DNA of 64,000 nt, taken from Truepera sp. (GTDB taxonomy: Bacteria > Deinococcota > Deinococci > Deinococcales > Trueperaceae). The notes below the pieces were generated by a model, which made no database searches, was not told the origin of the DNA, and saw only the letters and a list, made by a program, of their open reading frames with translations. Positions within the stretch are counted from its first letter, which is position 1. Every line of letters begins with the position of its first letter. The stretch covers positions 3,392,001 through 3,456,000 of the forward strand of contig CBDCKW010000009.1 of assembly GCA_965218435.1 (NCBI GenBank). Direction: 5' to 3'. Shown in pieces: positions 20,377-58,119 of the stretch. Both the position numbers and the translations under genes were made by a program.

Positions 20377-20961
20377 CTAAACAACGCACCGTCTAAAGCC
20401 GGTGGGTTTGGAAGCCACTGAAAGTGTCCTTCCAGGCTCAAGCCTGCTTGCAACCTCTACTCACTAATCTTGAAGTTCTCTTCGGGCGGCGCTTCATCAG
20501 GCGCTTCGATATACGCCTTGACCTGCTCGTCTGTGACCGTTCCGACCGTCGCACAGAAGTAACCTCGTGCCCACAAGTGTGGTCCCCAGTAACGCTTCTT
20601 CAAATGTGGAAACTCTTCTTGCAACAGCCGTGACGAGCGCCCCTTAAGATACGGCATCACTTTCGCTGGACTCAGGCTTGGCGGACATGATACCAGCAAG
20701 TGAACATGTTCTTTGCTAACGTGCCCTTTGAGTATCTTGATGTCACGGCTCATACAGCTTTGTCTGATAAGTTCCCTGGCTCTTTCGGCAACCTCACCGC
20801 GCAACACCTGGTAGCGGTACTTCGTCACCCAGACAAAATGGTACTCGATGTCGTAAATCGTGTGTGCGCCCGTTCGATACTCTGCCACCAGAGCGTCATC
20901 GTAGCAGCCCCTGCTAAAGCTGTTCGCCTATAGGCGAAGGTTTTAGACCTGGCGCGTGGAA
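20377..20961 (-). mobile_element. IS200/IS605-family element, tnpA only
   Basis: Y1 transposase flanked by imperfect subterminal hairpins (about 20384-20407 and 20914-20946); exact ends are inferred. Confidence 0.85.
20457..20888 (-). CDS. tnpA: IS200-type HUH (Y1) transposase, possibly degenerate
   Basis: YHFVWVTKYR, EHVHLL (HUH), LKGRSSR, LWARGYF. Confidence 0.92.
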   Translation of the reverse strand: MAEYRTGAHTIYDIEYHFVWVTKYRYQVLRGEVAERARELIRQSCMSRDIKILKGHVSKEHVHLLVSCPPSLSPAKVMPYLKGRSSRLLQEEFPHLKKRYWGPHLWARGYFCATVGTVTDEQVKAYIEAPDEAPPEENFKISE

Positions 20962-25419: not shown

Positions 25420-25590
25420 ATGAAAAAATTAGCTCTTCTTCTGTCCATCGGTGCTCTTCTTGCTTTCGGCGCAGCTCAAACCATGTCGGGTGGCATGATG
25501 TCGGGTGGCATGATGTCCGGCGGTATGATGTCCGGCGGTATGATGTCGGGTGGCATGATGTCCGGCGGTATGATGTCGGGTGGCATGTAA
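25420..25590 (+). CDS. Small secreted methionine-rich peptide, MKKLALLLSIGALLAFGAAQT(MSGGM)7; absent from the ORF track
   Basis: AGGGGGA RBS 6 nt before ATG, Sec-type signal peptide, seven 15-nt units differing only at synonymous sites, downstream terminator. Confidence 0.88.
   Translation: MKKLALLLSIGALLAFGAAQTMSGGMMSGGMMSGGMMSGGMMSGGMMSGGMMSGGM
25483..25587 (+). repeat. 7 x 15-bp coding tandem repeat
   Basis: Units ATGTCGGGTGGCATG (x4) and ATGTCCGGCGGTATG (x3). Confidence 0.97.
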
Positions 25591-28742: not shown

Positions 28743-29843
28743 ATGACCCCAGCCCAAACTACCCGCCGCATCCGGGTGCTGACCCTTTCCGGTAGTCCTT
28801 TCGAGATAGGCTACGCGCACGGAGCCGCGCACAAAGACGCGATTCGCCACTTTGCCGACGAGCGGGTTCGGCTGAGCGGCGACCCACTCTGGACGGGCCG
28901 GACGCTTTCCCGAACCGAAGTTTTAGACCTCGCTGAAGCGTGCCTAACCGAACACGAACGCTACGCCCCCGAGCTGGTCGAAGAGTTGCGCGGGATGGCG
29001 GCGGCCACTGCCCTGACTTTGGCTGAACTTTTAATCGTCAACGGCTTTACCGATTTTATTGACACCGTGCATCACGTCGGTCCCGGCACTGTGCAACCCG
29101 CCGCGCCGGTTGGGGCGGACAACTGCACCGCGTTCTTGGTTCCCAACAGTCTTGCAAACGGCCAGGGCTTTTTCGGTCAAACCTGGGATATGCACGACAG
29201 CGCGACGCCGCACGTGATTTTGCTGCGTGGCGAGCCCGAAGCTGCCCCCGCATTTTTGTGCTTTACGACCGTCGGTTGTGTCGGGATGATTGGCATGAAC
29301 GAAGCCGGGGTTGCGGTCGGTATCAATAACTTGCTCGGCGCGGATGGACAGATTGGCGTCACGTGGCCGTTCGTCGTGCGGAAGATGCTGCAAGCTGAAA
29401 CGGCTGAGGCTGCCCTGGAAGCCCTCCAAAATGCGCCGCTTGCCGGAGCGCACAACTACCTCATCATGGACCGCGCCGGAACCGGCTACAACGTCGAGGC
29501 GAGTGCGACCGTAGAGCATGTGACGCCACTAGGGACCGAACCCGTCATCCACACCAATCACTGTCTGGTCGAGGCGACGAGACGCGCCGAACGTCCTCGA
29601 GACGCCTTTTCACTCAGCTCATCCGAAGCGCGAGCGGCGCAGGCTCAGGAGTTGCTCGGCGGCGAAGAGGTCACCATAGAAGATTTGCAAGAGCTAACCC
29701 GTGACGATATCATCTGTGTGCGCTCGGCCGCGCCCAAACACATCGAGACGTGCGGCGCGGCTATTATGCGGCCTGCGACCGGCGACTTTTGGATGGCGTG
29801 GGGGCGTCCGGCGGAGCATCCGTATGAGCACTTCCGCCTCTGA
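28743..29843 (+). CDS. Peptidase C45 / acyltransferase (Ntn-hydrolase)
   Basis: G...EIGYAHG, NCTAF autoprocessing Cys, GQTWD, GMNEAG, HTNH. Confidence 0.85.
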   Translation: MTPAQTTRRIRVLTLSGSPFEIGYAHGAAHKDAIRHFADERVRLSGDPLWTGRTLSRTEVLDLAEACLTEHERYAPELVEELRGMAAATALTLAELLIVNGFTDFIDTVHHVGPGTVQPAAPVGADNCTAFLVPNSLANGQGFFGQTWDMHDSATPHVILLRGEPEAAPAFLCFTTVGCVGMIGMNEAGVAVGINNLLGADGQIGVTWPFVVRKMLQAETAEAALEALQNAPLAGAHNYLIMDRAGTGYNVEASATVEHVTPLGTEPVIHTNHCLVEATRRAERPRDAFSLSSSEARAAQAQELLGGEEVTIEDLQELTRDDIICVRSAAPKHIETCGAAIMRPATGDFWMAWGRPAEHPYEHFRL

Positions 29844-30453
29844 GCTGGTTTTGACGACGCTCAGGGCCGAACATGCGGCGGGGCTCGAGCAACTCCAAAT
29901 CGCCTGTTTCCCAACGCTTGCCCCTCATGAGTGGATGCGCCGAGAGCACTTCCTAAGTCACGCTAAGCTCTTTCCTGAAGGCAACTTTGTCGTGTTAGAC
30001 GGTGAGAAGGTCGTCGGACTCGGGTCGGGGTTTTTGACCGACTTTGATTTTACGGCGAAACATACCTTTTGGGAAACGGTTTCTGGAGGCTTTTACACGC
30101 GCCACGACCCGAACGGCGCGTGGTACTACGGCGGCGACATCAGCGTACATCCGGAGTACCGGAGTTTCGGCCTCGGGCGCAAACTTTACGACGCGCGTAA
30201 AGAGGTCGTGAAACGGCTGGAGCGGCGGGGCATCGTTGCAGGAGGGATGCTGCCGGGGTACGCGGCGCACAAATCGGCGCTGAGTGTTCACGACTACGTT
30301 CAAAAAGTCGTTGCCGGTGAGCTGAGCGACCCGACGCTCAGCTTTCAGCTTAAAAACGGGTTTGAAGTGCGCGGACTGCTGGAAAACTATCTGGACGATG
30401 AAGCTTCAGATGGATGGGCAACGCTGATTGTCTGGGAAAATCCAGACATGTAG
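29824..30453 (+). CDS. GNAT-family acetyltransferase (YkwB-like)
   Basis: VHPEYRSFGLGRKLYDARK, DPTLSFQLKNGF, C-terminal WENP; ATG overlaps the end of the C45 gene. Confidence 0.85.
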   Translation: MSTSASELVLTTLRAEHAAGLEQLQIACFPTLAPHEWMRREHFLSHAKLFPEGNFVVLDGEKVVGLGSGFLTDFDFTAKHTFWETVSGGFYTRHDPNGAWYYGGDISVHPEYRSFGLGRKLYDARKEVVKRLERRGIVAGGMLPGYAAHKSALSVHDYVQKVVAGELSDPTLSFQLKNGFEVRGLLENYLDDEASDGWATLIVWENPDM

Positions 30454-30482
30454 CTCTGAAACGTTAGGGTGACGGCTCATGC

Positions 30483-31091
30483 TTACCGCTTTGCACTAAC
30501 CGCGTACCGCTCGTCACTGACTTCGCCACCCCACAAATCTTGAATAGGACTCAGCTCAATAACCTCTACAGCTTTGAACTTTTCGGGGAGCATACTGACA
30601 ACTTCTTTTGCCTTTAAGCCTGCGCCCGTTGTCCAGGAGCCTTCAATCAGAAACATCTCACCCGCTGGCGTCAACAGATCGGCCCAGCGTTTTAACACCT
30701 CTTTAGGCTCGGGCAACGTCCATAAGATGTGACGACAAATTACGTAATCAAATCTTCCTTTGGCGACTGCGGGCTGGGCTGCGTCCATCACTCTAAAGTC
30801 AATAACTACGCCGCGCTGCTTCGCCTTTGCTCTAGCTAATTCAATCATTTTAGGTGAGCAGTCAATACCAACGACTGTATGCCCAGCTTGGGCCAGCAAC
30901 ACGCTGATTGAGCCTGTGCCACACCCTATATCAACAATCTTTGCTTTTGGCTTCGTTAGCCACTGGTCTAATAGGCTCTTCCAAGCCTTTTCTGTGTCAG
31001 GTTGAGCCATACCATGATCTGGCTGCTCATCAAATGAGGCAGCCTCTTCGTCCCACACATAGCGAGTTTGGGTTAAGTAATCTTCTTCCAT
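30483..31091 (-). CDS. Class I SAM-dependent methyltransferase
   Basis: DIGCGTG, GIDCSPKMI, FDYVICRHILW; AT-richer than the flanks. Confidence 0.9.
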   Translation of the reverse strand: MEEDYLTQTRYVWDEEAASFDEQPDHGMAQPDTEKAWKSLLDQWLTKPKAKIVDIGCGTGSISVLLAQAGHTVVGIDCSPKMIELARAKAKQRGVVIDFRVMDAAQPAVAKGRFDYVICRHILWTLPEPKEVLKRWADLLTPAGEMFLIEGSWTTGAGLKAKEVVSMLPEKFKAVEVIELSPIQDLWGGEVSDERYAVSAKR

Positions 31092-31198
31092 TAAAACAGC
31101 TTAGCAAATGAACCGGTCATATTAAGAGTTAGTGCCTGACTCTGCTTACTGCCTGCTCTCAGTCCACCACCCAAGGATTACCCTGCTAAAGTACAAGG

Positions 31199-31672
31199 GT
31201 GAAGCCCAGTGTGTATATTGAGACCACCGTCATCAGCTACTTAACGTCAAAACCGAGCCGTGACCTGATTATCGCGGCGCAACAGCAAATCACGACAGAC
31301 TGGTGGGACTCTGTGCGCTCTGAAGTAGACTGTTATGTATCTCCCTTTGGGATTCAGGAGGTGTCGCGTGGTGATAAAAGCCAAATAGAGCTTCGCCGTA
31401 CGGTCATTCGTGACATGTCTGTACTTGCCCTTAACGAAGTTATAAGGGAGCTGGCAGCCAAGTACGTTTCGGCACTTGGGTTGCCCGAACGAGCGACGCT
31501 CGACGCCTTCCACCTTGCTGTTGCCTCTTAGTACAACGTGGACTACGTGCTGAGTTGGAACTGCAAACACATTGCCAGCGGACGCGTTCAAAAAGTTTTG
31601 CAAAACCTCAACCGGAGTTTAGACATTCACACACCCGTTTTATGTACACCCCAAGAACTTATGGAGGTTTGA
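31199..31672 (+). pseudogene. PIN-domain (VapC-like) protein with an in-frame TAG at 31529-31531
   Basis: VYIETTVISYL...DAFHLAVAS*YNVDYVLSWNCKHIA...CTPQEL; the frame continues past the stop to TGA 31670-31672. Confidence 0.85.
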
Positions 31673-31673
31673 A

Positions 31674-31853
31674 ATGTGGGAAGACGCAATCGTTAAAGAG
31701 GTTCGTAAAGTACGCCTCGAGCTCGAAAAAGAAGCCGATTACGATGTGTCAACGCTCTACCAACGGGCGCTCGAGGTTCAAAATAAGGTCAAAGCAAAAC
31801 TCGTTTTGGAACCGCTACCTAAACTAGCGATCACTACTCCAAATCGGGTTTGA
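31674..31853 (+). CDS. Small partner protein of the PIN gene (putative antitoxin); absent from the ORF track
   Basis: 59 aa MWEDAIVKEVRKVR...; GGAGG RBS; starts 1 nt after the PIN stop; ends inside the GNAT-end repeat. Confidence 0.7.
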   Translation: MWEDAIVKEVRKVRLELEKEADYDVSTLYQRALEVQNKVKAKLVLEPLPKLAITTPNRV

Positions 31854-31932
31854 GGTGCGCGGGCTTTTGGAAAACTACTTGGACGATGAAGCTTCGGACG
31901 GTTGGGCGACGCCGAGTGTTTAGGAGAATCCA
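31846..31932 (+). repeat. Diverged copy 2 of the GNAT 3' end (matches 30358-30444)
   Basis: 72/87 nt identical by manual alignment; 12 of the 15 differences are synonymous. Confidence 0.92.
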
Positions 31933-31934
31933 AG

Positions 31935-32240
31935 TCAAGTCGCGTGAACATAAACTTTGACATCGGACTCGAGTCTGTCACCAAGCTGGTCTTGTGCCAA
32001 GTCAAGGTCATAATCGGTCTGTAAACCGAGCCAAAACTGAGGTGACATGCCGAAGTAACGCGCCAAGCGTAGCGCCGTATCAGCCGTTACGGAACGTTTT
32101 TTAAGCACGATCTCGTTTATCCGACGCGCACTTATACCTAAGCCGTTAGCAAGCTGATTCTGGCTGAGGTTCATGGGTTTAAGGAACTCTTCTAAAAGCA
32201 CTTCGCCGGGGTGAACCGGGGCAAGTTTGTCTACCATCAT
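31935..32240 (-). CDS. higA: HigA-family antitoxin
   Basis: HPGEVLLEEFL, RINEIV.KKRSVTADTALRLARYFG.SPQFWLGLQ. Confidence 0.95.
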   Translation of the reverse strand: MMVDKLAPVHPGEVLLEEFLKPMNLSQNQLANGLGISARRINEIVLKKRSVTADTALRLARYFGMSPQFWLGLQTDYDLDLAQDQLGDRLESDVKVYVHAT

Positions 32241-32253
32241 GATCTCCTCTCAC

Positions 32254-32535
32254 TTAGTGGTAATCAATGATCTCTACGTCAGCAGCGTCGCCGTCATCCC
32301 AAACAAAGCAAATACGCCACTGCTTATTGATACGGATGCTGTGTTGCCCCGCACGGACGCCTTGAAGTTTTTCAAGACGGTTAGCAGGAGGTACCCGCAG
32401 GTCAGTCAAAGTCTTAGCGTTGCTGAGCATTCGCAGTTTGCGTAAAGCGAGCTGCTGAATCTCGGAAGGGAGCTTACGAGAACGTTGCCGGTGATAAATC
32501 TTCTCTGCTTCTTTACTCTTAAAAGATTTGATCAC
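32254..32535 (-). CDS. higB: HigB-family (RelE-like) toxin
   Basis: IKSFK, DLRVPPANRLEKL.G...GQHSIRINKQWRICF.W, EIIDYH; GTG start 7 nt after TATAAT. Confidence 0.93.
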   Translation of the reverse strand: MIKSFKSKEAEKIYHRQRSRKLPSEIQQLALRKLRMLSNAKTLTDLRVPPANRLEKLQGVRAGQHSIRINKQWRICFVWDDGDAADVEIIDYH

Positions 32536-32546
32536 ACAAAAGATTA

Positions 32547-32561
32547 TAACGTATAACGTTA
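32547..32561. promoter_or_regulatory. Probable HigA operator overlapping the higBA -10 box
   Basis: TAACG-N5-CGTTA dyad adjoining the minus-strand TATAAT (32543-32548). Confidence 0.6.
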
Positions 32562-32619
32562 AACGCCACATGTAACTTAAACGGGTAAGGAAAGTGTCTG
32601 ACAACCCGAGTCCGGAAGC

Positions 32620-32664
32620 GACGAAACTTCAGATGGATGGGCAACGCTGATTGGTTGGGAGAAT
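32620..32664 (+). repeat. Copy 3 of the GNAT 3' end (matches 30397-30441)
   Basis: 40/45 nt identical, including the exact run CTTCAGATGGATGGGCAACGCTGATTG. Confidence 0.9.
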
Positions 32665-32683
32665 TTGAATTACAATAGGCTTA

Positions 32684-33403
32684 ATGATAGACAAGGCTCA
32701 CATTCTTAATGAATTAAAGCGAGTTACAGATTCTGGCAATGGCGTTGTGCCGGGACAGCAAAAGTTTTTTAATGAAACTGGAATAAAGCAGTCAGACTGG
32801 TATGGAAAGTTTTGGGCAAGATGGAGCGACGCAGTTAAAGAAGCTGGCTATAGCCCAAACCAGCTTCAGAAGTCTTACAGTCATATATTTTTGCTTGAAA
32901 ATTTGCTCGCACTTACCCGTGAGTTGGGACAGTTCCCAACCAGAGGTGATTTGCGACTTAAAGCAAAAACTGATTCCAGTTTCCCCAGTCACAACACTTT
33001 TGGCAATCTAGGCAGCAAGAAAGAAATAATTCGTAAACTGATTGAGTTCTGCGAACAGCACGGCAACCTTGAAGACGTGGCAGAAATCTGCAAACCTTTA
33101 GTTTCTGTGGCGGAACCTAGACAGAGCGTTCAAGAAATTTCAGAAGACTTTGGTTACGTTTACCTGATGAAATCAGGCCGCTTCTACAAAATTGGCAAAA
33201 GTAGTTCAGTAGGGAGAAGGCATTACGAATTATCTATACAGCTTCCCGAAAAACTTTCTGTTGTACACAAGCTCATAACGGATGACCCTTCAGGAATCGA
33301 GTCCTATTGGCACAAGCGTTTTGAAAGTAAACGGAAGAACGGTGAGTGGTTTGAGCTTTCCCAACAGGATATCAAAGCATTTAAGCGCCGTAAATTCATG
33401 TAG
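32684..33403 (+). CDS. GIY-YIG / T5orf172-like nuclease-domain protein
   Basis: C-terminal GYVYLMK...YKIGKS...E..WH.RF..KR.NGEWF; AT-rich. Confidence 0.8.
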   Translation: MIDKAHILNELKRVTDSGNGVVPGQQKFFNETGIKQSDWYGKFWARWSDAVKEAGYSPNQLQKSYSHIFLLENLLALTRELGQFPTRGDLRLKAKTDSSFPSHNTFGNLGSKKEIIRKLIEFCEQHGNLEDVAEICKPLVSVAEPRQSVQEISEDFGYVYLMKSGRFYKIGKSSSVGRRHYELSIQLPEKLSVVHKLITDDPSGIESYWHKRFESKRKNGEWFELSQQDIKAFKRRKFM

Positions 33404-33445
33404 AAGGTTGGCTCTCAATCTATCCTGAAAGCAATTTGGTCTTGC

Positions 33446-34339
33446 TCATTCTCCGCGCCGCTGCATCACCAGAGACACCGCGACGAGCACTATCGAAACC
33501 AAAATCATCAACGCCGACACCGCGTTGATTTCCGGCGGCACGCGCTGCTTTAAGAGCCCGTAAACAAAGAGCGGCAGCGTCGTCGTCCCAACGCCCGCCG
33601 TAAAAAAGGTCACCACGAAGTCGTCTAAAGAAATCGTAAAGGCTAAGAGTGCGCCGCCTAAAATCCCCGGTACGAGCGCCGGAAAGGTGATGTGCCAGAA
33701 GGTTTGGAGGTGATTGGCACCGAGGTCTCGAGCGGCTTCCTCGAGCGTTCCGTCCATTGTTGCCAGCCGCGCCCGCACCACGACGGCGACGTAGGCGATG
33801 TTAAAGGCGATGTGTGCGATGATGATGGTGGCAAAGCCGCTCACCAGCCGTACCCCGAACAGGTTTTGCACGAGCGCAAAAAAGGTGTTGAAAAAGACTG
33901 CGAGCGCCACCCCTTGCGTGATGTCGGGAATGATTACCGGCAGGTAAAAAAGTGCGTCGAACACCCGTTTACCGGGAAAGTCGCCGCGCGCCACGGCGAG
34001 CGCAAACAGCGTCCCGATGATTGTAGACATTACCGTCGAGATAGCCCCGACAATGAGCGAATTACGGACGGCGTTTAAGAGCTGCGCCGACTGAAAGCTG
34101 AGCCCGTCCGCGCCGCCGCCCAATAAGTTTTGATACCACCGCAGGGTAAAGCCGCGCCACACCGAGATAGACTCGGCGTTGTTAAACGAGTAGACGACCA
34201 AAACCAGAATCGGCACCCAAAGAAAGATGTAGGTCAACATAGGAATCAACCACAATCCGAAACGTCCGACCCGGCGTACAGAGAGGTCTCTCGACAATTT
34301 GCCTTGATTGAGGTCGGTCGCTTTGGCCGCTTTGGTCAC
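33446..34339 (-). CDS. potC: Polyamine ABC transporter permease (PotC-like)
   Basis: YSFN...W.GFTLRWY, LEEAARDLGA, SLDDFVVTFF, PEINA. Confidence 0.88.
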   Translation of the reverse strand: MTKAAKATDLNQGKLSRDLSVRRVGRFGLWLIPMLTYIFLWVPILVLVVYSFNNAESISVWRGFTLRWYQNLLGGGADGLSFQSAQLLNAVRNSLIVGAISTVMSTIIGTLFALAVARGDFPGKRVFDALFYLPVIIPDITQGVALAVFFNTFFALVQNLFGVRLVSGFATIIIAHIAFNIAYVAVVVRARLATMDGTLEEAARDLGANHLQTFWHITFPALVPGILGGALLAFTISLDDFVVTFFTAGVGTTTLPLFVYGLLKQRVPPEINAVSALMILVSIVLVAVSLVMQRRGE

Positions 34340-35902: not shown

Positions 35903-37055
35903 GTTCGAGTCCTAATAATTCGCTCAGCCCTTCAAATTCGGGGCGTTCAGAGGTGAGGGGCTCGAGGTGACCTTCCAGCAATAGATAGGGAATCCCCCTA
36001 GCCCGCGCGTGAGCTCGCAGCTCGTTTACATCATCGGTCAAGGCCCGCTCGACGCGGTAACCCGCCGTCCGTAAACGTCGCGCCAGGTCGTCATCTAAAC
36101 TTACAGCAATTGGCGGTGCGTCGCCGGTGACACCGGGCAGGGCCGATAAAAGGCGCTCCAAACCAATCGCAAACCCCGCCGCAAAGGGCAACAGCGCCCC
36201 GTCGTAACGGCCCCCGCCGAGGAGCGGTTGCCCGAAGTCAAAGGTGTACGCGCGAAAAGTGACGCCCGTGTAGTACGACAGCCGCCGCGCCATGCCGAGG
36301 TCTAAGAGGAGTTCGCTGCTATCTTCAAACTCGGTTAGGACGGCCTCTAAGTGGTCACAAGCCGCTGCCGTCTCCGGCCACGGCGCGAGCCGCCGCGCCT
36401 CGTCCAGGACGCGCACACCGCCGTAAAGGTCAGGAACACTGAGGAGCGCCTTTTCCAAGTCGGGGGCTAAGGCAAGCGGGTCCAAGAGTGCTCGTAACGT
36501 CGCCGGGTCTTTGCGGTCAACCGCGTCAGCAGCCATATTCTGCACGGCAACCGGCAGTTCAGCAAGCTTAAACAGCTGCCGGACAAAGCCTGGATTGCCC
36601 ACTTCGACGCGGGGCGCTAGGCCCACGGCCCGCACCGCTTCACGCGCCAGATGAATCAGTTCAGCGTCGGCGCGGACCCCGCTGACGCCGATAAGCTCGA
36701 GCCCGACCTGCGTAAACTCCCGCGTCCGGGCGATGTCCGGGACGACCGTGCGCCAGAGCCCGCCGCTATATTGCAACCGCAAAGGGCCTTGCTGCTCAGC
36801 TTGGTTAAACCGCACCAGTTTAGCTAAAGCGTAGGTATAGTCCGAACGCAGCGCCAGAAGCTCACCCTCCGGCCCCGTCAGTTTGAATGAACGTTCTGCA
36901 ACTGGATGACGGGGGTCAAAGCGTTCCAATACCGGTACCGCGACGTGTTCGTAGCCCCAGCTCGAGAACAGCGCCCGCAGCGTCCCGACGGCCCGGACCC
37001 GCGCCGCACTTTCAGACGCGTGCGCGTAGCGGGTACCTTCGGGGGGAGTGCTCAC
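35895..37055 (-). CDS. hisZ: ATP phosphoribosyltransferase regulatory subunit
   Basis: HisRS-like [29 protein letters not shown]; overlaps short hisG. Confidence 0.92.
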
Positions 37056-37274
37056 GTTTTTAAGCGTACCGCGCCCTTTGCAGGTAAGGCTAGCATTTTT
37101 GGAGTTTGGCGCTTACTATAACGGCCTTCCACTTATTGCTCGAGGACGGCATTAATCTAGTGCGAGTGTTCGACGGACGACAAAACATTAGACGCGAATT
37201 TGGAGAATACCGAAACTTCTTCGCTATTCGAGCACAGCAGACTAAAGATTGCAAAGCAGTAAACTCTAATAATA

Positions 37275-37775
37275 ATGGACTACATTTTCATTCATGGTGC
37301 TCCTGGAAGCGGTAAGTCATCTCTAGCTTGGGCACTGCAAGCAAAACTGGAAAGTCCCTGCTTTGAGTTTGGTTGGATTCCAGAATTCCGGATTAAACGA
37401 AACAGTACGATCAGCTATGAAGAGGAAGAAAATCTTGCCTTTGAAAATCTTACATTAGTCATTAAAAACTATGTCCAGCACGGCTTTAGTAATATCTTAG
37501 TGACTGATCTACGAGACCATATTGTCAAACAGCTACCGACGCACTTCAGCTATCATCAATACGTCCTGGTCACACTATATTCAGATGATGAGCAGGCATT
37601 AAAAGCTAGAGTGTTGGATGAATCGCGCTCTAGCAGTTACAGAGATTGGCAAGAGGCGGTGGCGCTAAACACTGAGATTACCAACCGTCCACTCATGAAG
37701 CACGAAGTCAGGCTCGCTAGCGATCAGACCATTGAGGAACTGACTGCAAAAGTGATAGCACTTGTCAGCAACTAG
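37275..37775 (+). CDS. P-loop (AAA/kinase-like) protein
   Basis: N-terminal GAPGSGKS; AT-richer than the flanks. Confidence 0.75.
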   Translation: MDYIFIHGAPGSGKSSLAWALQAKLESPCFEFGWIPEFRIKRNSTISYEEEENLAFENLTLVIKNYVQHGFSNILVTDLRDHIVKQLPTHFSYHQYVLVTLYSDDEQALKARVLDESRSSSYRDWQEAVALNTEITNRPLMKHEVRLASDQTIEELTAKVIALVSN

Positions 37776-37968
37776 CTGGAACCCCTTTCCTGGGAAGTTC
37801 CGAAATCTGGCGCGTCAGAGGCTTAAGATATCTACTCGAGCCCCTCTGCAAGTAGCAAACGCCTTTCGGCAAAACTCCTTCAACTGGGAACAATTATATT
37901 CTCAAGCGTAACGCACACCCTCCATAGCGGCTAGCACCAGGCCACCCATAACCCTTACATTAGAAGAC

Positions 37969-38913
37969 GTGAGCGTCCTACGACCTTTTGCAGAGACCGA
38001 CTACCCCGCTTTTACCGCGCTCTATAACCGCTGCCGTCCCGAAGCGCCGGAGAGTGAAACGTCAATAAGGGCGTTTGACAACGCCTATGCTGACGACGAA
38101 CTGCTCAATCTTGTTGCTTTAGAAGGTGACAAACTCGTCGGCGCGGTCTGGGCGCACCGTGATCAGGCGGGCGAGAGGCAGGTGCGGCTCGACATGCTCG
38201 CTGAGCCCATCATGCCCCTTGCCGAAACGCTCTACCGGGTGGCGCTGGAAAAGCTCGAGCCTTACCATCCCTCAGCCCTGATTGTGCGAGTACGCGAAAA
38301 CTGGACGGACTGGCTGGACTTTTATGACGGCAAAGGTTTTGTTGAACTCGAGCGGATGTGGGAGTCTCGGCTCGAGCTCGCTACCTTCAGCCCCGAAAGA
38401 TTTAAGGAAGCTGCAGCACGTATAGCCGACTCGGGCATCACCCTCGGTACCCTTGCCGACTTGCCCGATACGACCGCAACGCAGCGGCGCTTGTACGGAA
38501 CAATCATCCAACTTCTCAGCGACGTGCCTTTCTATGAACCTCTCAATATCTGGCCTTTTGAGCTATGGCAAAAACGGTTTTGGAGGAATCCGGCACGCCG
38601 CCCTGAAAGCTTCTTTTTGGCGTTTGACGGCAACGATACCGTCGGGGTAAGTGAGTTGCGAACTGCTTCTCGCCCCGGTTGGCTCAGCACCGGCCTTACC
38701 GGAGTTAAACGCACACATCGTCGGCAAGGCGTCGCGCTAGCCCTCAAGGTTCGGGCCGCGCAGTACGCGCAAGCTGCCGGATTCGAGATCATTTCAACGC
38801 AAAACCACACGACGAACCGCGCCATGCTCTCTATTAACGAAGCATTAGGCTTCGTCAAAGAACCCGCGTGGATACGTCTTAAGAAAACTTTTGAGATAGC
38901 GAAAGCAGATTAG
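37969..38913 (+). CDS. Tandem-domain GNAT acetyltransferase
   Basis: TGV...HRRQGVALALK and NRAMLSINEALGF. Confidence 0.85.
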   Translation: MSVLRPFAETDYPAFTALYNRCRPEAPESETSIRAFDNAYADDELLNLVALEGDKLVGAVWAHRDQAGERQVRLDMLAEPIMPLAETLYRVALEKLEPYHPSALIVRVRENWTDWLDFYDGKGFVELERMWESRLELATFSPERFKEAAARIADSGITLGTLADLPDTTATQRRLYGTIIQLLSDVPFYEPLNIWPFELWQKRFWRNPARRPESFFLAFDGNDTVGVSELRTASRPGWLSTGLTGVKRTHRRQGVALALKVRAAQYAQAAGFEIISTQNHTTNRAMLSINEALGFVKEPAWIRLKKTFEIAKAD

Positions 38914-38916
38914 CCT

Positions 38917-51142: not shown

Positions 51143-51937
51143 ATGATGGAGACCCTCCGAGGGGCGTGGGACACCACCCTCTCTTTTCTAACGCCCTACT
51201 ACCAACAGACGGTTGCATTCTTGCGTACTTTAGACCCGGTGGTGTGGTGGACGGTCGGGGGCGTGCTGCTCGTATCGTTCCTCCTTTGGCTCTTGCTGCG
51301 CCGCCGCGAACCCCGTAAAGACGGTCGCCCCGAGGTACTGCTCTCGCTTGGGACGGTCTCCGCGCCGGACGGTGAGGTCGCCGGGACCGAAGGCCGCCAC
51401 CTGCTGCGGCTGACGGTCAGCAACCTCAACACCTACGCCGTGCAGGTGCTGGAACTCGCCCTCAAAACGCCCGAGATGGACGTGCCGGTCACCGCTGAAG
51501 TCGCCGCCGTAGTGCCGCCGGAAGGCTCAGTGATGCTCGAGCAATCCTTGACCGGCGTGACCGGCGACGAGGGTCGCCTCAACTTGTACTTTTACACCGC
51601 TGGAAAAAGGCGTATCTACCGTTTGCAAGCGCCGTTTGCGCTCGAGCCGTGGAACAACCGCTATAAGATTTCGCCGCTCGACCAGAGTGTCACCCCGGCC
51701 AGGCAACTTGCGAGTGCCGGAGTCAGCCGCGTACAAGAACAGACGTGGCGCGAAGCGCGTGAGCAAGAACGCGCCGAAGTTGCAACGAGCAGTGCGCCGC
51801 GAGAAGCCGTATACGTCGTTCGTGAAAAGCCCCAGAAACGCCGTGAAGTCAGGGAGCGCCCTGCCGAGCTGCCCCGCACCCCTGAGCCGGTCGAAGCGCC
51901 CCACTACAGTGAAACCGTTTTTCCCGACGAGTTTTAG
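51143..51937 (+). CDS. Hypothetical single-pass membrane protein
   Basis: One TM segment, beta-rich middle, charged tail; TAAGCT 6 nt before ATG. Confidence 0.65.
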   Translation: MMETLRGAWDTTLSFLTPYYQQTVAFLRTLDPVVWWTVGGVLLVSFLLWLLLRRREPRKDGRPEVLLSLGTVSAPDGEVAGTEGRHLLRLTVSNLNTYAVQVLELALKTPEMDVPVTAEVAAVVPPEGSVMLEQSLTGVTGDEGRLNLYFYTAGKRRIYRLQAPFALEPWNNRYKISPLDQSVTPARQLASAGVSRVQEQTWREAREQERAEVATSSAPREAVYVVREKPQKRREVRERPAELPRTPEPVEAPHYSETVFPDEF

Positions 51938-51955
51938 GGTATTACCGGTTATACT

Positions 51956-52777
51956 TTGCAGCTTGGGTGTAACGATTCTCTGCCGCTCCGCCTTTTGCTG
52001 GACGAAAACCGCGTTAAGCTCGATTTTCTCAAAGTCTCGAGCCTGGACGGGCTCCCGGAAGCCGTAGAAGCTGCCCTTAATTACCGCCCTGTGCTTATTC
52101 ACGTAGGGTTTGGCATCGGTGACACCACAGCCTCTTACGACGCGTTCGACTGGAACGGATTTAACCGCCTCGTGCAGCGTGCCGGGTCGCCTCACCTGGC
52201 GATGCACCTCGAGGCGTCCACACATAACTGGCGCGGCGACGATTTACGGGTTCAAAGCCGAGCTGAAATTCTCCAAATTACAGAACAGCTGGCCGCTTTG
52301 TGCAAGTTCTTGAAAGATAGGCTGGGGTGCCCCTTGCTTTTAGAAAATATGGACTACATGGGCACCGAGCTAAAACCGGGTTACGGCGTGTTCCTTACAA
52401 GCGTCGAACCTGCACTAATGTGGGATTTAGTTGGAAAAGAGGGGGTCGGCGTCTTGCTCGACTTGGCGCATCTGCGGGTTACGGCGTATCACCTCGGTTT
52501 GGACGTTTACGCGTTCGCTCGGTCGTTGCCCCTTCACGCAGTGCGCGAAATACATGTGAGCGGCCCCGCCTATATTGACGGTTTGGGACTTCGTGACGAT
52601 CATCAAGAATTAAGCGAAGCTGACTACGCGCTGCTCGAGTGGGCCTTGCCCCGGACAAACGCTGAGATTGTGACGCTCGAGTACCCGAAAGCCCGGACGG
52701 TCACAGCGTCTTTTGACGAGCAAGCTGCGGCGCTGAGGCGTCAGCTTAAGAGGCTTAACAAGATAGTTGACTTGTGA
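51956..52777 (+). CDS. DUF692 (MNIO)-like TIM-barrel metalloprotein
   Basis: Spaced metal-ligand motifs LLLEN, LLDLAH, EIHVSG, DDH, VTLEY. Confidence 0.75.
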   Translation: MQLGCNDSLPLRLLLDENRVKLDFLKVSSLDGLPEAVEAALNYRPVLIHVGFGIGDTTASYDAFDWNGFNRLVQRAGSPHLAMHLEASTHNWRGDDLRVQSRAEILQITEQLAALCKFLKDRLGCPLLLENMDYMGTELKPGYGVFLTSVEPALMWDLVGKEGVGVLLDLAHLRVTAYHLGLDVYAFARSLPLHAVREIHVSGPAYIDGLGLRDDHQELSEADYALLEWALPRTNAEIVTLEYPKARTVTASFDEQAAALRRQLKRLNKIVDL

Positions 52778-55792: not shown

Positions 55793-56911
55793 ATGAAGTT
55801 AGAGCGTATCGAACTGCGCGAGGTCACGGCGCGTCTTAAATTTCGTTTTGAAACGAGTTTCGGCGTCGAACAAGAGTTGCGTAAGGTGCTTTTAACACTT
55901 CACACTGAGGGCGTGGAAGGCTACGGCGAGGCGACGAGCGGCATCTTTCCCGGTTACTCGTATGAAACGAACGAGACCGTGTGGGATACGCTTAAACATC
56001 ACATCATCCCGCTGGTTTTGGACAAAGAGTTTGCGACCCCCACCCAACTTCTAGCGGCGCTAGGGCCCGTTCGGGGGCATAACATGGCGGTAGCAACGCT
56101 CGAGACCGCCTTTTGGGACGCGTCGGCCAAAGCTGCCGGGGTGCCGCTCTGGGTGCTGCTAGGTGGGTCACGCACCGAGCATCCGGTGGGCGCGTCGCTG
56201 GGGATTCAAGAGAGCGTTGAAAAGACGGTTGAAACGGCTCTCAAGCACGCCGACGAGGGCTACAAACGCCTCAAGTTCAAGATCAAACCGGGGTGGGATG
56301 TGCTGCCGCTTCGGGCTGTGCGGGAGGCGCTCCCCGAGATGCCGCTGACCGTAGACGCGAACAGCGCCTACCGCCTGACTGACGCCCGCGTCTTTCAACA
56401 ACTCGATGAATTGGGGCTCGAGTACATCGAACAACCGCTCGCCTACGACGACCTGATAGACCACGCGCAGCTCCAAAAACTCCTAGCGACGCCCATCTGT
56501 CTGGACGAATCCATTCACTCCCCCGAAGACGCCCGCAAAGGCTTACAACTCGGGTCGGGGCGCGTCATCAACATCAAAGTCGGGCGAGTACGCGGACATC
56601 TGGCGGCGCGGCGCACGCACGACGTCGCTTTATCGTTTGGTGCGCCGGTGTGGTGCGGCGGGATGTTGGAACTCGGCATCGGCCGCGCCCACAACCTGCA
56701 CCTCAGTTCACTGCCTGGATTTACGCTCCCCGGCGATACGGCGAGCGCGTCGCGTTACTGGGATGAGGACATCGTAGAGCCCGTTTTGGACGCCGTAGAC
56801 GGGATGCAGAAGATTCCGGACGGTCCCGGCCTCGGCGTGACGCTCCGACAAGGCTTGATTGATGAGCTGACCCTGCGGCATGAAGTGTTTTCAGCTGAGA
56901 CGGGCAGGTGA
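55793..56911 (+). CDS. menC: o-succinylbenzoate synthase / N-succinylamino acid racemase (enolase superfamily)
   Basis: FETSFG, RLKFKIKPG, VDANSAY, IEQPL, LDESI, WCGGMLE.GIGRA. Confidence 0.85.
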   Translation: MKLERIELREVTARLKFRFETSFGVEQELRKVLLTLHTEGVEGYGEATSGIFPGYSYETNETVWDTLKHHIIPLVLDKEFATPTQLLAALGPVRGHNMAVATLETAFWDASAKAAGVPLWVLLGGSRTEHPVGASLGIQESVEKTVETALKHADEGYKRLKFKIKPGWDVLPLRAVREALPEMPLTVDANSAYRLTDARVFQQLDELGLEYIEQPLAYDDLIDHAQLQKLLATPICLDESIHSPEDARKGLQLGSGRVINIKVGRVRGHLAARRTHDVALSFGAPVWCGGMLELGIGRAHNLHLSSLPGFTLPGDTASASRYWDEDIVEPVLDAVDGMQKIPDGPGLGVTLRQGLIDELTLRHEVFSAETGR

Positions 56912-57465
56912 AGCGCATCCTTCTCGTCGTCACGGGGCCGCCATGTGCTGGTAAAACAACGCTCGCCGCGCAGCTCGGCCTCGAGCTGTCTTTGCCCGTC
57001 ATTCACCGCGACGTCCTGAAAGAAATCTTGTTCGACGCCTTGGGGTCAAAAGATCGGGCTTGGTCACGGGACGTGGGTGGGGCGAGTTATGACCTGCTAT
57101 TCAGTTTTCTCGAGTCTCTCTTGCAAGCTGGCTATCCGTGTATCGCCGAAAGCAACTTTGAAATCGGACGGCCTAGTGTCCGGCTCAAAGGTCTTTGCGA
57201 AACCTACAACTTTACGCCTGTAGAAATCCTCTGTACCGCCGAAACCGAAGTGCTGCGCGAGCGTTATATTACGAGGTTGGATTCCGGTGCGCGGCATCAA
57301 GGCCATGTGGATCACCTCAACTTAGACGACATCAGCGCGCGGTGGGCAAATAATCAGCACGGCAGTTTGGAACTCGGCGGTCAGAGTATCCGGGTAGACA
57401 CCACTAAATTCGGCAACCCCGAGCAGGCCCTGCTGAGGCGTGAGTTACAAGACATATTAGAGTAG
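56908..57465 (+). CDS. P-loop kinase-like protein, paralog 1
   Basis: GPPCAGKTT; start overlaps the menC stop (GTGA). Confidence 0.85.
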   Translation: MKRILLVVTGPPCAGKTTLAAQLGLELSLPVIHRDVLKEILFDALGSKDRAWSRDVGGASYDLLFSFLESLLQAGYPCIAESNFEIGRPSVRLKGLCETYNFTPVEILCTAETEVLRERYITRLDSGARHQGHVDHLNLDDISARWANNQHGSLELGGQSIRVDTTKFGNPEQALLRRELQDILE

Positions 57466-57558
57466 GCTATAGCGGTTGTGACATACCGGTAGGGCCAAGC
57501 GAAGGGTTTTTGATAGGGCTATCTCGGTTTTTGCTGCTATGCGTTACACTGCCTGAGG

Positions 57559-58119
57559 ATGAAGCGAATCCTAGTAGTAGTAACAGGGCCGCCGTGTGCC
57601 GGTAAGACGACCCTTGCGGCGCAGCTCGGTCATGAATTGTCGTTACCCGTCATTCACCGGGACGTTTTGAAAGAAGTTCTTTTCGACACGCTGGGGGTCA
57701 AAGACCGGGCTTGGTCGAGAGAAGTGGGCGGGGCCAGCTACGTCTTGCTCTTTAGTTTTCTCAAGTCTCTCTTAAGCGCCGGTTATCCCTGCATCGTTGA
57801 AACCAGTTTTGAGAGACGAGCTTCTAATAAGCTAAAGGCGCTCTGTGAAACGTACAATTTTGTTCCCGTAGAAATTCTCTGCACCTCCGACCTCGAGACG
57901 TTTCGTAAACGGTACAAAACTCGGCTTGAGTCCGGCGAACGGCACGCGGGGCATGTTGATCATCTCAACCTAGACGAAATTAGTGCAAGGTGGGTGAGCG
58001 GCGAGCGCGGCAGCTTAGAGCTCGGCGGTCAGAGTATTCAGGTAGATACCACCAACTTCGGCCAACTTGAGCGCGACGCGCTGACGAAGAAGTTGCGAAT
58101 CCTGACCGAGAGCCGCTAA
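57559..58119 (+). CDS. P-loop kinase-like protein, paralog 2
   Basis: GPPCAGKTT; collinear homolog of 56908-57465. Confidence 0.85.
   Translation: MKRILVVVTGPPCAGKTTLAAQLGHELSLPVIHRDVLKEVLFDTLGVKDRAWSREVGGASYVLLFSFLKSLLSAGYPCIVETSFERRASNKLKALCETYNFVPVEILCTSDLETFRKRYKTRLESGERHAGHVDHLNLDEISARWVSGERGSLELGGQSIQVDTTNFGQLERDALTKKLRILTESR

Follow-up and report, generated by a model that had tools for sequence, protein, structure and literature searches.

In the window, which is the whole stretch of 64,000 nucleotides of Truepera sp. DNA that we analysed, an intact GNAT acetyltransferase gene is followed by several blocks of cargo, and two displaced copies of the gene's own 3′ end (its tail) lie between the blocks. 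The array is flanked by a conserved peptidase gene on the left and by a conserved convergent permease gene on the right. The features are as follows.

28743..29843, + strand: C45/AAT-family peptidase (Pfam PF03417; 79–81% DNA identity and syntenic in G004 and G005)
29824..30453, + strand: GNAT acetyltransferase, the intact anchor gene (PF00583; 209 aa from the ATG at 29824)
30358..30444, + strand: present functional GNAT tail (29 codons, GFEV...WENP)
30483..31091, − strand: cargo 1a, class I SAM methyltransferase (PF08241)
31199..31672, + strand: cargo 1b, PIN-domain (VapC-like) pseudogene (PF01850, slightly below cut-off)
31674..31853, + strand: cargo 1c, 59-aa ORF, putative PIN partner (from the ORF list)
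31846..31932, + strand: displaced tail copy 2, decayed allele at congener-level divergence (L>P, I>S, W>stop)
31935..32240, − strand: cargo 2, HigA antitoxin (TIGR02607, 113 bits against a cut-off of 47.7)
32254..32535, − strand: cargo 2, HigB toxin (RelE-like, bacterial toxin-antitoxin; PF05015)
32619..32664, + strand: displaced tail copy 3 (15 codons, 41/46 identical)
32684..33403, + strand: cargo 3, HNH-repeat and GIY-YIG-like (MUG113/T5orf172) nuclease (profile matches; 42% GC)
33446..34339, − strand: PotC-like ABC permease, conserved and convergent, forming the right flank (PF00528; syntenic in G004, G005 and L071)

The cargo has a GC content of 42–49%, compared with 57–60% in the flanks. 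The PIN pseudogene contains a single internal TAG (31529–31531) and spans 157 codons if this stop is read as X. The 59-aa ORF behind it, which terminates only within tail copy 2, had no match in Pfam and NCBIfam searches, and its position suggests that it is the putative partner of the PIN gene. Related cargo is found elsewhere: a methyltransferase homologue with 74% DNA identity occupies another site in G005, and higBA with 69% DNA identity lies at another site in G001. The nuclease has 3256 homologues, of which the best are 53–60% identical and the named ones come from other phyla, and it is present in a single one of the 364 genomes of its own phylum (E≤1e-25). Judging from these homologues, the nuclease is foreign to the phylum. 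PADLOC gave a generic methyltransferase match and otherwise weak matches in the array (nuclease E 0.003), so a 'defence' role of the cargo is not established.

The first-pass annotation of this DNA had placed neither an integrase nor a transposase nearby. The former statement stands, whereas an IS200-type transposase is located at 20460–20888, 9.5 kb upstream; nothing evident ties it to the array.

Short-read contigs cross every junction of the array. Run X1 supplied three contigs that cover 30345–31681, 31655–32066 and 32037–33671, each with 0 differences, at depths of 56–61 on the array contigs and 75 on the upstream flank; the corresponding depths in run X2 are 366–389 and 408, X1 and X2 being a single sample that is possibly the window's own source. 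A chimera assembled from co-occurring strains, which had been raised as an objection, is ruled out by these spanning contigs. Two other runs touch the higBA block. In X3, a 232-nt contig matches 31846–32077 with 17 differences, and its change spectrum (one A>G, one G>T, one T>A) hints at an intact-type tail joined to higA. In X4, from another study, higBA is found at 95–99% from 31903, with the methyltransferase, the PIN gene and most of the nuclease left without cover; the missing cover carries no evidential weight.

Displaced copies of the GNAT gene end

The gene aligns with copy 2 at 83% over 92 nt (30353–30444 against 31841–31932) and with copy 3 at 89% over 46 nt (30396–30441 against 32619–32664). 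Genome-wide, blastn gave no significant extra copy of the tail besides these two (E 1e-20 and 2e-10). Over 30358–30444, copy 2 is identical to the gene at 72 of 87 positions; of the 15 differences, 12 are synonymous and the other three are L>P, I>S and W>stop. Both copies had been reported before, and we reproduced the codon tally exactly. Weak homology of copy 2 possibly extends a few codons to the left of 31846. On the other side, WEN(P/L) marks the limit of homology among GNAT alleles, and the protein sequence of the tail is unchanged among congeners up to WEN.

Under neutral decay, 12 or more synonymous changes among 15 are expected with a probability of 7e-6 to 1.4e-4, depending on the transition bias. 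The present gene (G000) and its counterparts in G004, G005 and L071 differ pairwise at 8–17 of the 87 positions, and copy 2 differs from each of these four at 12–15, with 15 separating it from the gene. Because copy 2 combines a congener-level distance with mainly silent changes, we take it as a displaced allele rather than a decayed local duplicate. The sequence thus supports the earlier proposal that copy 2 was once a functional allele of the GNAT end.

Copy 3 is nearer to the present gene (5 of 45 differences, two of the five synonymous) than to copy 2 (10 of 45). It has two silent states in common with the present gene that are absent from copy 2 and from all congeners, the exception being one other variant in G004. 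A plain newest-to-oldest series, in which each acquisition simply pushes the old tail downstream, is therefore not what the copies record. The copies begin at gene positions 30358 and 30396, and this 38-nt offset implies that they have no common crossover, although a later partial deletion of copy 3 is possible.

GNAT relatives were found in 21 of the 41 genomes searched (G000 counted in). In the GNAT–potC interval, the cargo differs in all four syntenic relatives compared, which agrees with a gene-capture hotspot, and the cargo 3 nuclease does not occur in the intervals of G004, G005 and L071. The expectation of variable cargo across relatives was thus borne out, but not that of cargo bounded by a tail copy: no true downstream copy was found among the 120 GNAT-homologue loci tested, some of which are duplicate records and many of which have short flanks. 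Three downstream matches among them were rejected, two as paralogous GNAT genes (L034 and L041) and the one in L072 as a repeat that begins past the conserved GNAT end. An intact GNAT gene joined to higBA or to the nuclease was seen letter by letter in no relative, and there are hints only.

Displaced gene ends across the genome

A genome-wide scan for displaced 3′ ends, which had been set as a check on the array, revealed a polarity. By chunked blastn on C9 and C5 (score ≥23), gene 3′ ends are repeated 19 times downstream and once upstream (P=4e-5). Gene 5′ ends are repeated 8 times upstream and twice downstream (P=0.11), and mid-gene repeats are found five times on either side. After paralogue and IS remnants were removed by hand, the set holds 17 tails of 16 genes, several of them weak. 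The tails are 37 to ~190 nt long, with one weak case of 23 nt, and have no att-like site in common. The anchors include purA, aspS, mutL and rimO among ~15 unrelated genes. On our reading, capture is a general process of this genome and not a device of the GNAT gene, contrary to the dedicated, GNAT-centred system first envisaged. The cargo at these sister sites is mostly metabolic or regulatory, only ~4 of 15 being toxin-antitoxin-like, and does not form the stockpile of toxin-antitoxin and defence genes that had been suggested. Among the 26 sister-site cargo ORFs, no Pfam integrase or recombinase was matched.

Comparison with congeners reveals the direction of the change. For a LuxR-type regulator, the displaced copy and the DNA behind it match the sequence immediately after the intact gene in G005, and the same holds for purA in G005 and G002. 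Since congeners retain the ancestral order at these two sister sites, it is the displaced copy that represents the original native end, as the proposal of a replaced tail with the old end moved downstream requires. Donor-type orders are also observed: in G002 the HD-domain cargo comes directly after aspS, and in G005 the first part of the mutL cargo comes after mutL.

The scar was not found in 60 aspS, purA and ABC permease loci (1.16 Mb; one from G001, the rest from other genera of the family), where 3 downstream and 5 upstream matches were rejected as GC-rich chance matches, short repeats or paralogues. Outside the phylum, the matches listed for 99 loci comprise 8 downstream and 6 upstream, without polarity. 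No Trueperaceae record, judged by title, came up when the collection was scanned with purA and mutL. We found no published genome-wide description in the literature searched, which included few subscription papers and no supplements.

Several known systems resemble this arrangement. The T6SS arrays of Vibrio cholerae were likened to integrons by Kirchberger et al. (2017, PMC5361080), who proposed that they arise by homology-facilitated illegitimate recombination; in the available portion of that paper, the effector-immunity modules are integrase-free like ours, and successive insertions displace older material downstream. Their anchor is the secretion-system cluster and the kept parts are selected immunity genes, whereas here ordinary genes serve as anchors at ~15 sites, the dead tail is <200 nt, and anchor and cargo are unrelated. 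In rhs/mafB displacement, as far as the accessible text of Jackson et al. (2009, PMC2935791) describes it, an intact gene is likewise followed by 3′ copies of variable length, each preceding different low-GC DNA, some with stops, and no integrase is present. What is swapped in rhs is the protein's own variable toxin tip, along with its immunity gene, and its repeats are almost identical to one another; in our case, the protein is unchanged, the copies are diverged at congener level and the cargo consists of separate ORFs. Homology-facilitated illegitimate recombination (HFIR) in naturally competent Acinetobacter, Streptococcus and Pseudomonas stutzeri also combines a one-sided homologous anchor with an illegitimate joint to take in foreign DNA, but it is described in the part of PMC2884548 consulted as replacing recipient DNA, with no duplicated gene end mentioned there.

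The likeness to an integron, also drawn in the first-pass annotation, did not survive. The best match to the integron integrase IntI (TIGR02249) scored 59.7 bits against a cut-off of 265, and five spacers folded no better than shuffles when assessed for attC hairpins by folding only (z −1.15 to +0.59). An attC-like motif after the methyltransferase was rejected, as it forms no hairpin. Integron cassettes are mostly co-oriented, whereas the orientation here is mixed, with the methyltransferase and higBA on the minus strand and the PIN gene and the nuclease on the plus strand.

Proposed capture mechanism and its alternatives

We interpret the array as the scar of at least two homology-anchored captures from relatives, each closed by an illegitimate joint within the gene end, and assign this reading a probability of about 0.55. 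Linear donor DNA, with the same operon end and another downstream neighbour, would enter the cell, most likely by natural transformation; the host has a ComEC (PF03772 above cut-off). Homologous recombination would then take place in the conserved anchor, which the peptidase gene, as part of the conserved upstream operon, would help to supply, and the GNAT gene would stay whole and acquire the donor tail. Such tail replacement is seen at the sister sites; the crossover itself is presumed. The free non-homologous end would be joined illegitimately within the last ≤200 nt of the recipient gene, by which the old tail and everything behind it would end up downstream of the new cargo. The geometry is that observed, and the chemistry of the joint is our conjecture. 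Finally, the orphan tail decays, as the copies do. Tail-less cargo swaps in relatives may arise because joints beyond the stop codon leave no copy, and stacking at GNAT may occur because only a short gap separates two convergent conserved operons. HFIR is described, in the available parts of PMC5361080 and PMC2884548, as rare and as yielding replacements. A joint placed at random would not predict the tight ~190-nt ceiling on tails, which may point to circles or to a targeted cut.

Small circles of gene tail plus cargo could integrate in the Campbell manner, by one crossover in the recipient tail, after excision in the donor, either by recombination from one tail copy to another or at a short repeat like CTCGAG. 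The geometry would be the same and short, variable tails would come naturally, and copy 3 and the gene, 89% identical, could delimit a 2.2-kb unit; yet one crossover in 40–90 nt at ~85% identity is generally expected to be inefficient. Circles were proposed for rhs by Jackson et al., although very high identity is required in the accessible text of that paper (PMC2935791), and excision between HIP1 sites in cyanobacteria is reported in the available part of PMC13756078. Among the read-contig matches listed, there is no joint from tail copy to tail copy, and we consider circles unlikely.

A replacement end that is diverged at silent sites is a hallmark of integrase elements restoring their target gene, such as e14, which integrates in the protein gene icd of E. 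coli and restores its 3′ end. The array displays such a replacement end with a displaced pseudogene fragment, and the genome holds 23 tyrosine-recombinase matches. However, decayed islands that targeted GNAT, with the integrase lost or acting in trans, are quite improbable and largely refuted. E14-type elements have an integrase and a single fixed crossover. Here, the starts of copies 2 and 3 reveal no shared crossover, neither the array nor any gene called in the window encodes an integrase, and the nearest tyrosine-recombinase match is ~545 kb away. The ~15 target genes would each require a lost integrase of their own. Genuine integrase islands of this genome look different, with tRNA repeats of 46 nt at 100% and 75 nt at 95% and an integrase match between them. 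A phage collection gave no match, and plasmids gave only higBA at 66–75% identity.

The cargo 3 nuclease, with its GIY-YIG-like domain and 'homing endonuclease associated repeat', starts 19 nt past copy 3, and might be taken for a free-standing homing endonuclease that cleaved the GNAT tail, supplied a recoded one resistant to cutting and set off the stack. We regard this as very improbable, since the nuclease was found in one of the 364 genomes of the phylum (E≤1e-25) and is absent from the other GNAT–potC intervals inspected, belongs to a conserved multi-phylum family and has no displaced tail behind it, and the 26 sister-site cargo ORFs include no such nuclease. Local duplication of the gene end with neutral decay and independent insertion of cargo, with which copy 3 alone would be compatible, deserves hardly any credence, as the silent excess and distance of copy 2 refute it for that copy and it leaves the downstream polarity and the ancestral arrangements in congeners unexplained.

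The CTCGAG palindrome and its possible role in gene gain

The palindrome CTCGAG is the commonest hexamer of the chromosome, with one per 470 nt. It lies on 3 of 17 joints in this genome and on 2 of 6 elsewhere; both GNAT joints lack it. About 2% of joints would be expected to lie within 4 nt of the palindrome. The 3 joints in this genome that share it could reflect microhomology. As the 60 family loci contain no true scars, they provided no new joints for a larger test. We tentatively suggest, while thinking it doubtful, that Truepera-like bacteria gain genes genome-wide by integrase-free tail replacement with CTCGAG as a preferred joint or cut site. As part of the same combined and equally doubtful claim, the palindrome would close the non-homologous end of relatives' DNA, and the GNAT array would be a stacked instance independent of it.

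HIP1 of cyanobacteria is a comparable hyper-abundant palindrome, associated in the available text of Elhai (2015, PMC4390886) and PMC13756078 with recombination, either site-specific or illegitimate, and with how efficiently cells are transformed. CTCGAG is another word in another phylum, with 0 occurrences in the text of PMC4390886, and, unlike HIP1, its tie is to natural joints of captured DNA, the GNAT copies excepted. In the literature searched, we found nothing that lists CTCGAG among the highly iterated palindromes of Deinococcus. What such palindromes do has long been unsettled, and scar joints make the question countable. If the suggestion is true, a HIP1-like word would be directly involved in gene capture and legible in natural scars, and an excess of CTCGAG at joints could matter more than the GNAT site.

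Displaced tails record gene gains in a datable and polarised form, and island finders keyed to integrases would miss such records. By this route, toxin-antitoxin, nuclease and metabolic genes arrive next to housekeeping genes, from donors that differ at ~15% of tail positions, and the GNAT site is an ordinary, stacked example of it.

Copies of the GNAT gene end

Two displaced repeats of the 3' end of a GNAT acetyltransferase gene lie between that gene and potC.

Features of the array (window coordinates)
29824-30453, + strand: GNAT gene, intact
31846-31932: tail copy 2, repeat of the last 29 conserved GNAT codons
32619-32664: tail copy 3, repeat of the last 15 conserved GNAT codons
33446-34339, - strand: potC
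Cargo between copies: methyltransferase; PIN pseudogene with a 59-aa neighbour; higBA; HNH-repeat/GIY-YIG-like nuclease

In the 4.8-Mb genome, these are the sole significant extra copies of the GNAT tail, and their starts are 38 nt apart. The GC content of the cargo blocks is 42–49%, versus 57–60% in the flanks. All array junctions are bridged by zero-difference short-read contigs at 74–95% of flank depth in one sample, possibly the source, which rules out an assembly chimera. The repeats noticed in the first-pass annotation are real.

Copy 2 differs from the gene at 15 of 87 nt, 12 differences being synonymous and the others L>P, I>S and W>stop, and copy 3 differs at 5 of 46 nt. The probability that neutral decay gives at least 12 silent changes of 15 in copy 2 is 7e-6 to 1.4e-4. 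The divergence of copy 2 falls within the range among the gene and its relatives in genomes G004 and G005 and locus L071 (8–17/87). Because of this silent excess and a divergence at the level between the gene and its close relatives, the copies are alleles, and the earlier reading of copy 2 as a former functional allele holds.

Over 45 positions, copy 3 has 5 differences from the gene and 10 from copy 2. Two silent codon states are common to copy 3 and the gene and absent from copy 2, G005, G004 and L071. It follows from this closeness and the two shared states that the present tail and copy 3 belong to a single gene pool, copy 2 being the allele of more foreign origin. The array requires two events or more. 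By position, we infer the order nuclease, higBA, methyltransferase/PIN, oldest first; equally possibly, a ready-made 2.2-kb unit arrived and pushed copy 3 downstream. A 40%-identical GNAT paralogue is located just past the window end (3464858-3465388 of C9, the main contig of this genome, G000), and most family genomes having the gene hold both paralogues.

The same interval in relatives

The nearest named relatives are Trueperaceae. Flanked by the same pair of convergent operons, the interval holds a GrpB-family gene in G005, a 407-aa unknown gene in L071, and about 370 nt without an ORF of 70 aa in G004. The GNAT–potC interval is a hotspot, and the expectation of variable cargo in relatives was borne out; that of a tail copy at each cargo was not, as none occurs in the G005, G004 and L071 intervals. 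Among the relatives compared, the tail copies are private to G000. Of 120 GNAT loci tested, three gave downstream matches, namely two paralogues and one unrelated repeat. In co-occurring relatives of the source sample, potC is linked via other letters to the end of GNAT, to the PIN neighbour or to the beginning of higA (30444>33448, 31705>33456, 32251>33450), but these joints are weak, with 85% likeness and some short sides.

Adjoining the GNAT interval of G004, we notice a 5.55-kb tandem duplication (L032:7367-18468, 99.4%) of potCB, hisG and an IS-like ORF, which could be either real or an assembly artefact. Between hisZ and a HIT gene (window 36900-38915) lies a further variable interval, with other ORFs in G005 than the AAA-family ORF and double GNAT of this genome; a displaced tail was not detected in it. 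Elsewhere in the window, two AAA_33 kinase-like genes stand in tandem (55793-58116, 72% DNA identity across 507 nt) behind a gene of the mandelate-racemase family. At 51143-52774, a 264-aa ORF without annotation precedes a match to the MbnB/TglH/ChrH family (E 8e-13) that also hits AP_endonuc_2 and is probably a TIM-barrel protein. A small ORF at 25420-25590, whose start resembles a signal peptide and which repeats MMSGG units, may encode a metal-binding peptide. Two arrays of CRISPR-like repeats, with periods near 66 and 72 nt, are located at C3:1124-4916 and C9:2954571-2955901 of G000.

Displaced gene ends across the genome

We compared 20-kb chunks of C9 and a second contig, C5, with themselves (score cut-off at least 23), using a home-made gene caller (3763 genes on C9, 756 on C5). 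Gene 3' ends are repeated downstream 19 times versus once upstream (P 4e-5), gene 5' ends upstream 8 times versus downstream twice (P 0.11), and mid-gene pieces 5 versus 5. After removal of evident paralogue, IS and internal-repeat rows, the hand-picked set comprises 17 tails at 16 genes, every tail shorter than about 190 nt. Its anchors include purA, aspS, mutL, a radical-SAM/TRAM protein (read as rimO), pyrD, a Ca/H exchanger (cax), an ABC permease, a LuxR-type regulator, a Rieske oxygenase and a TPR protein. Weak rows were retained: pyrD, the gene at C9:2682917, a 23-nt match on C5 and a 66% match at C9:2439392.

Eight sister sites, other genes of this genome with displaced tails, were compared with congeners across 29 congener loci. 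At the regulator and purA, the displaced copy together with its stop codon and following DNA matches what directly trails the intact gene in G005; at purA, the downstream DNA matches G002 as well. The displaced copies at these two sites are thus old native ends, and the first-pass reading of tail replacement holds. A donor-like order is found in G002 (aspS then the HD gene) and in G005 (mutL then the first cargo gene). None of the 29 congener loci has a displaced tail of its own anchor, except cax in G004.

We also observed a mirror case on C5 (109301-111654), where the gene at 111088 is preceded by two displaced copies of its 5' end (65 and 45 nt, 86–89%); the longer copy ends 5 nt past a CTCGAG. 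At C9:1175895-1179768, a membrane-protein gene has a displaced 5' end (65 nt, 82%) lying 3.2 kb upstream. In G005 (L215:6557-9400), a gene 3' end with downstream DNA (167 nt, 81%) is displaced 2.2 kb downstream; we take an ORF in this cargo to be IS5-like.

CTCGAG and the proposed mechanism of displacement

With 8390 copies, or one per 470 nt, CTCGAG is the top hexamer of C9; GCTCGAGC has 2157 copies, and GGCGCC (26), TTTAAA (24), AGGCCT (29) and GGGCCC (34) are nearly missing. These counts suggest strong restriction-site avoidance alongside a HIP1-like excess. Tail homology starts at CTCGAG in 3 of 17 tails (ABC permease, cax, TPR; P 0.001-0.005, post hoc).

Tails starting at (G)GCTCGAG or CTCGAG
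G000:C9:1164057-1164140
G000:C9:2339429-2339502
G000:C9:3731746-3731811
Other loci: L214, L229, L242, L252

In G004 and G005, the cax tails start at the same site; the two have downstream DNA in common and are probably one event. Among loci examined after the idea arose, CTCGAG is the exact starting point of 2 of 6 candidate tails (L242, L252; P 0.013-0.044), but not of those at L215, L236, L254 and L275, L039 being left out as a GC-rich chance match. By likeness, the L242 cargo may be a DpnI-type restriction enzyme. CTCGAG is missing at 14 of 17 joints and at both GNAT joints, and no countable tail came from 60 more loci of the family. A role of the palindrome as capture joint is less likely than not; the abundant word could also be passive microhomology, or the part of a decaying copy that stays recognisable longest. 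Two papers link HIP1 to recombination and transformation efficiency (PMC4390886, PMC13756078).

No dedicated recombinase was found for the array. About 545 kb separate it from the closest tyrosine-recombinase match, the called genes of the window include a single transposase (IS200 type, 9.5 kb away), and none of 26 cargo ORFs scanned at sister sites matches an integrase or recombinase. The integron-like defence stockpile first proposed was overstated: IntI was not found in the genome, nor an attC-like fold, and sister cargo is mainly metabolic or regulatory (toxin-antitoxin-like at about 4 of 15 C9 sites).

We favour, at a probability of about 0.55, that linear DNA of a relative would enter the cell, homologous recombination would anchor it in a conserved operon, and an illegitimate joint within the recipient's gene end would close the other side. 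The host genome has ComEC. The data show the allelic origin, the polarity and direction of the displaced ends, and that an integrase is absent; how the DNA was taken up, the crossover and the chemistry of the joint are inferred. The main rival, integration of small circles by single crossover, is rather unlikely. Decayed integrase islands fit poorly and are improbable. Homing by the nuclease, also a poor fit, is still less probable: the nuclease occurs in 1 of 364 phylum genomes and its family spans several phyla, so it is cargo rather than a driver of homing. Local duplication of the gene end fits poorly and is the least probable.

Scars of e14-type elements look similar, and the array fails as a member of the integrons, integrase islands, rhs arrays or homing elements. 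The array works like rhs C-terminal displacement (PMC2935791) and like the stepwise displacement put forward for T6SS arrays in Vibrio (PMC5361080). Genome-wide scars of this kind behind housekeeping genes had no description that we found in the open-licence literature; in G000, the tail-replacement scar is genome-wide.
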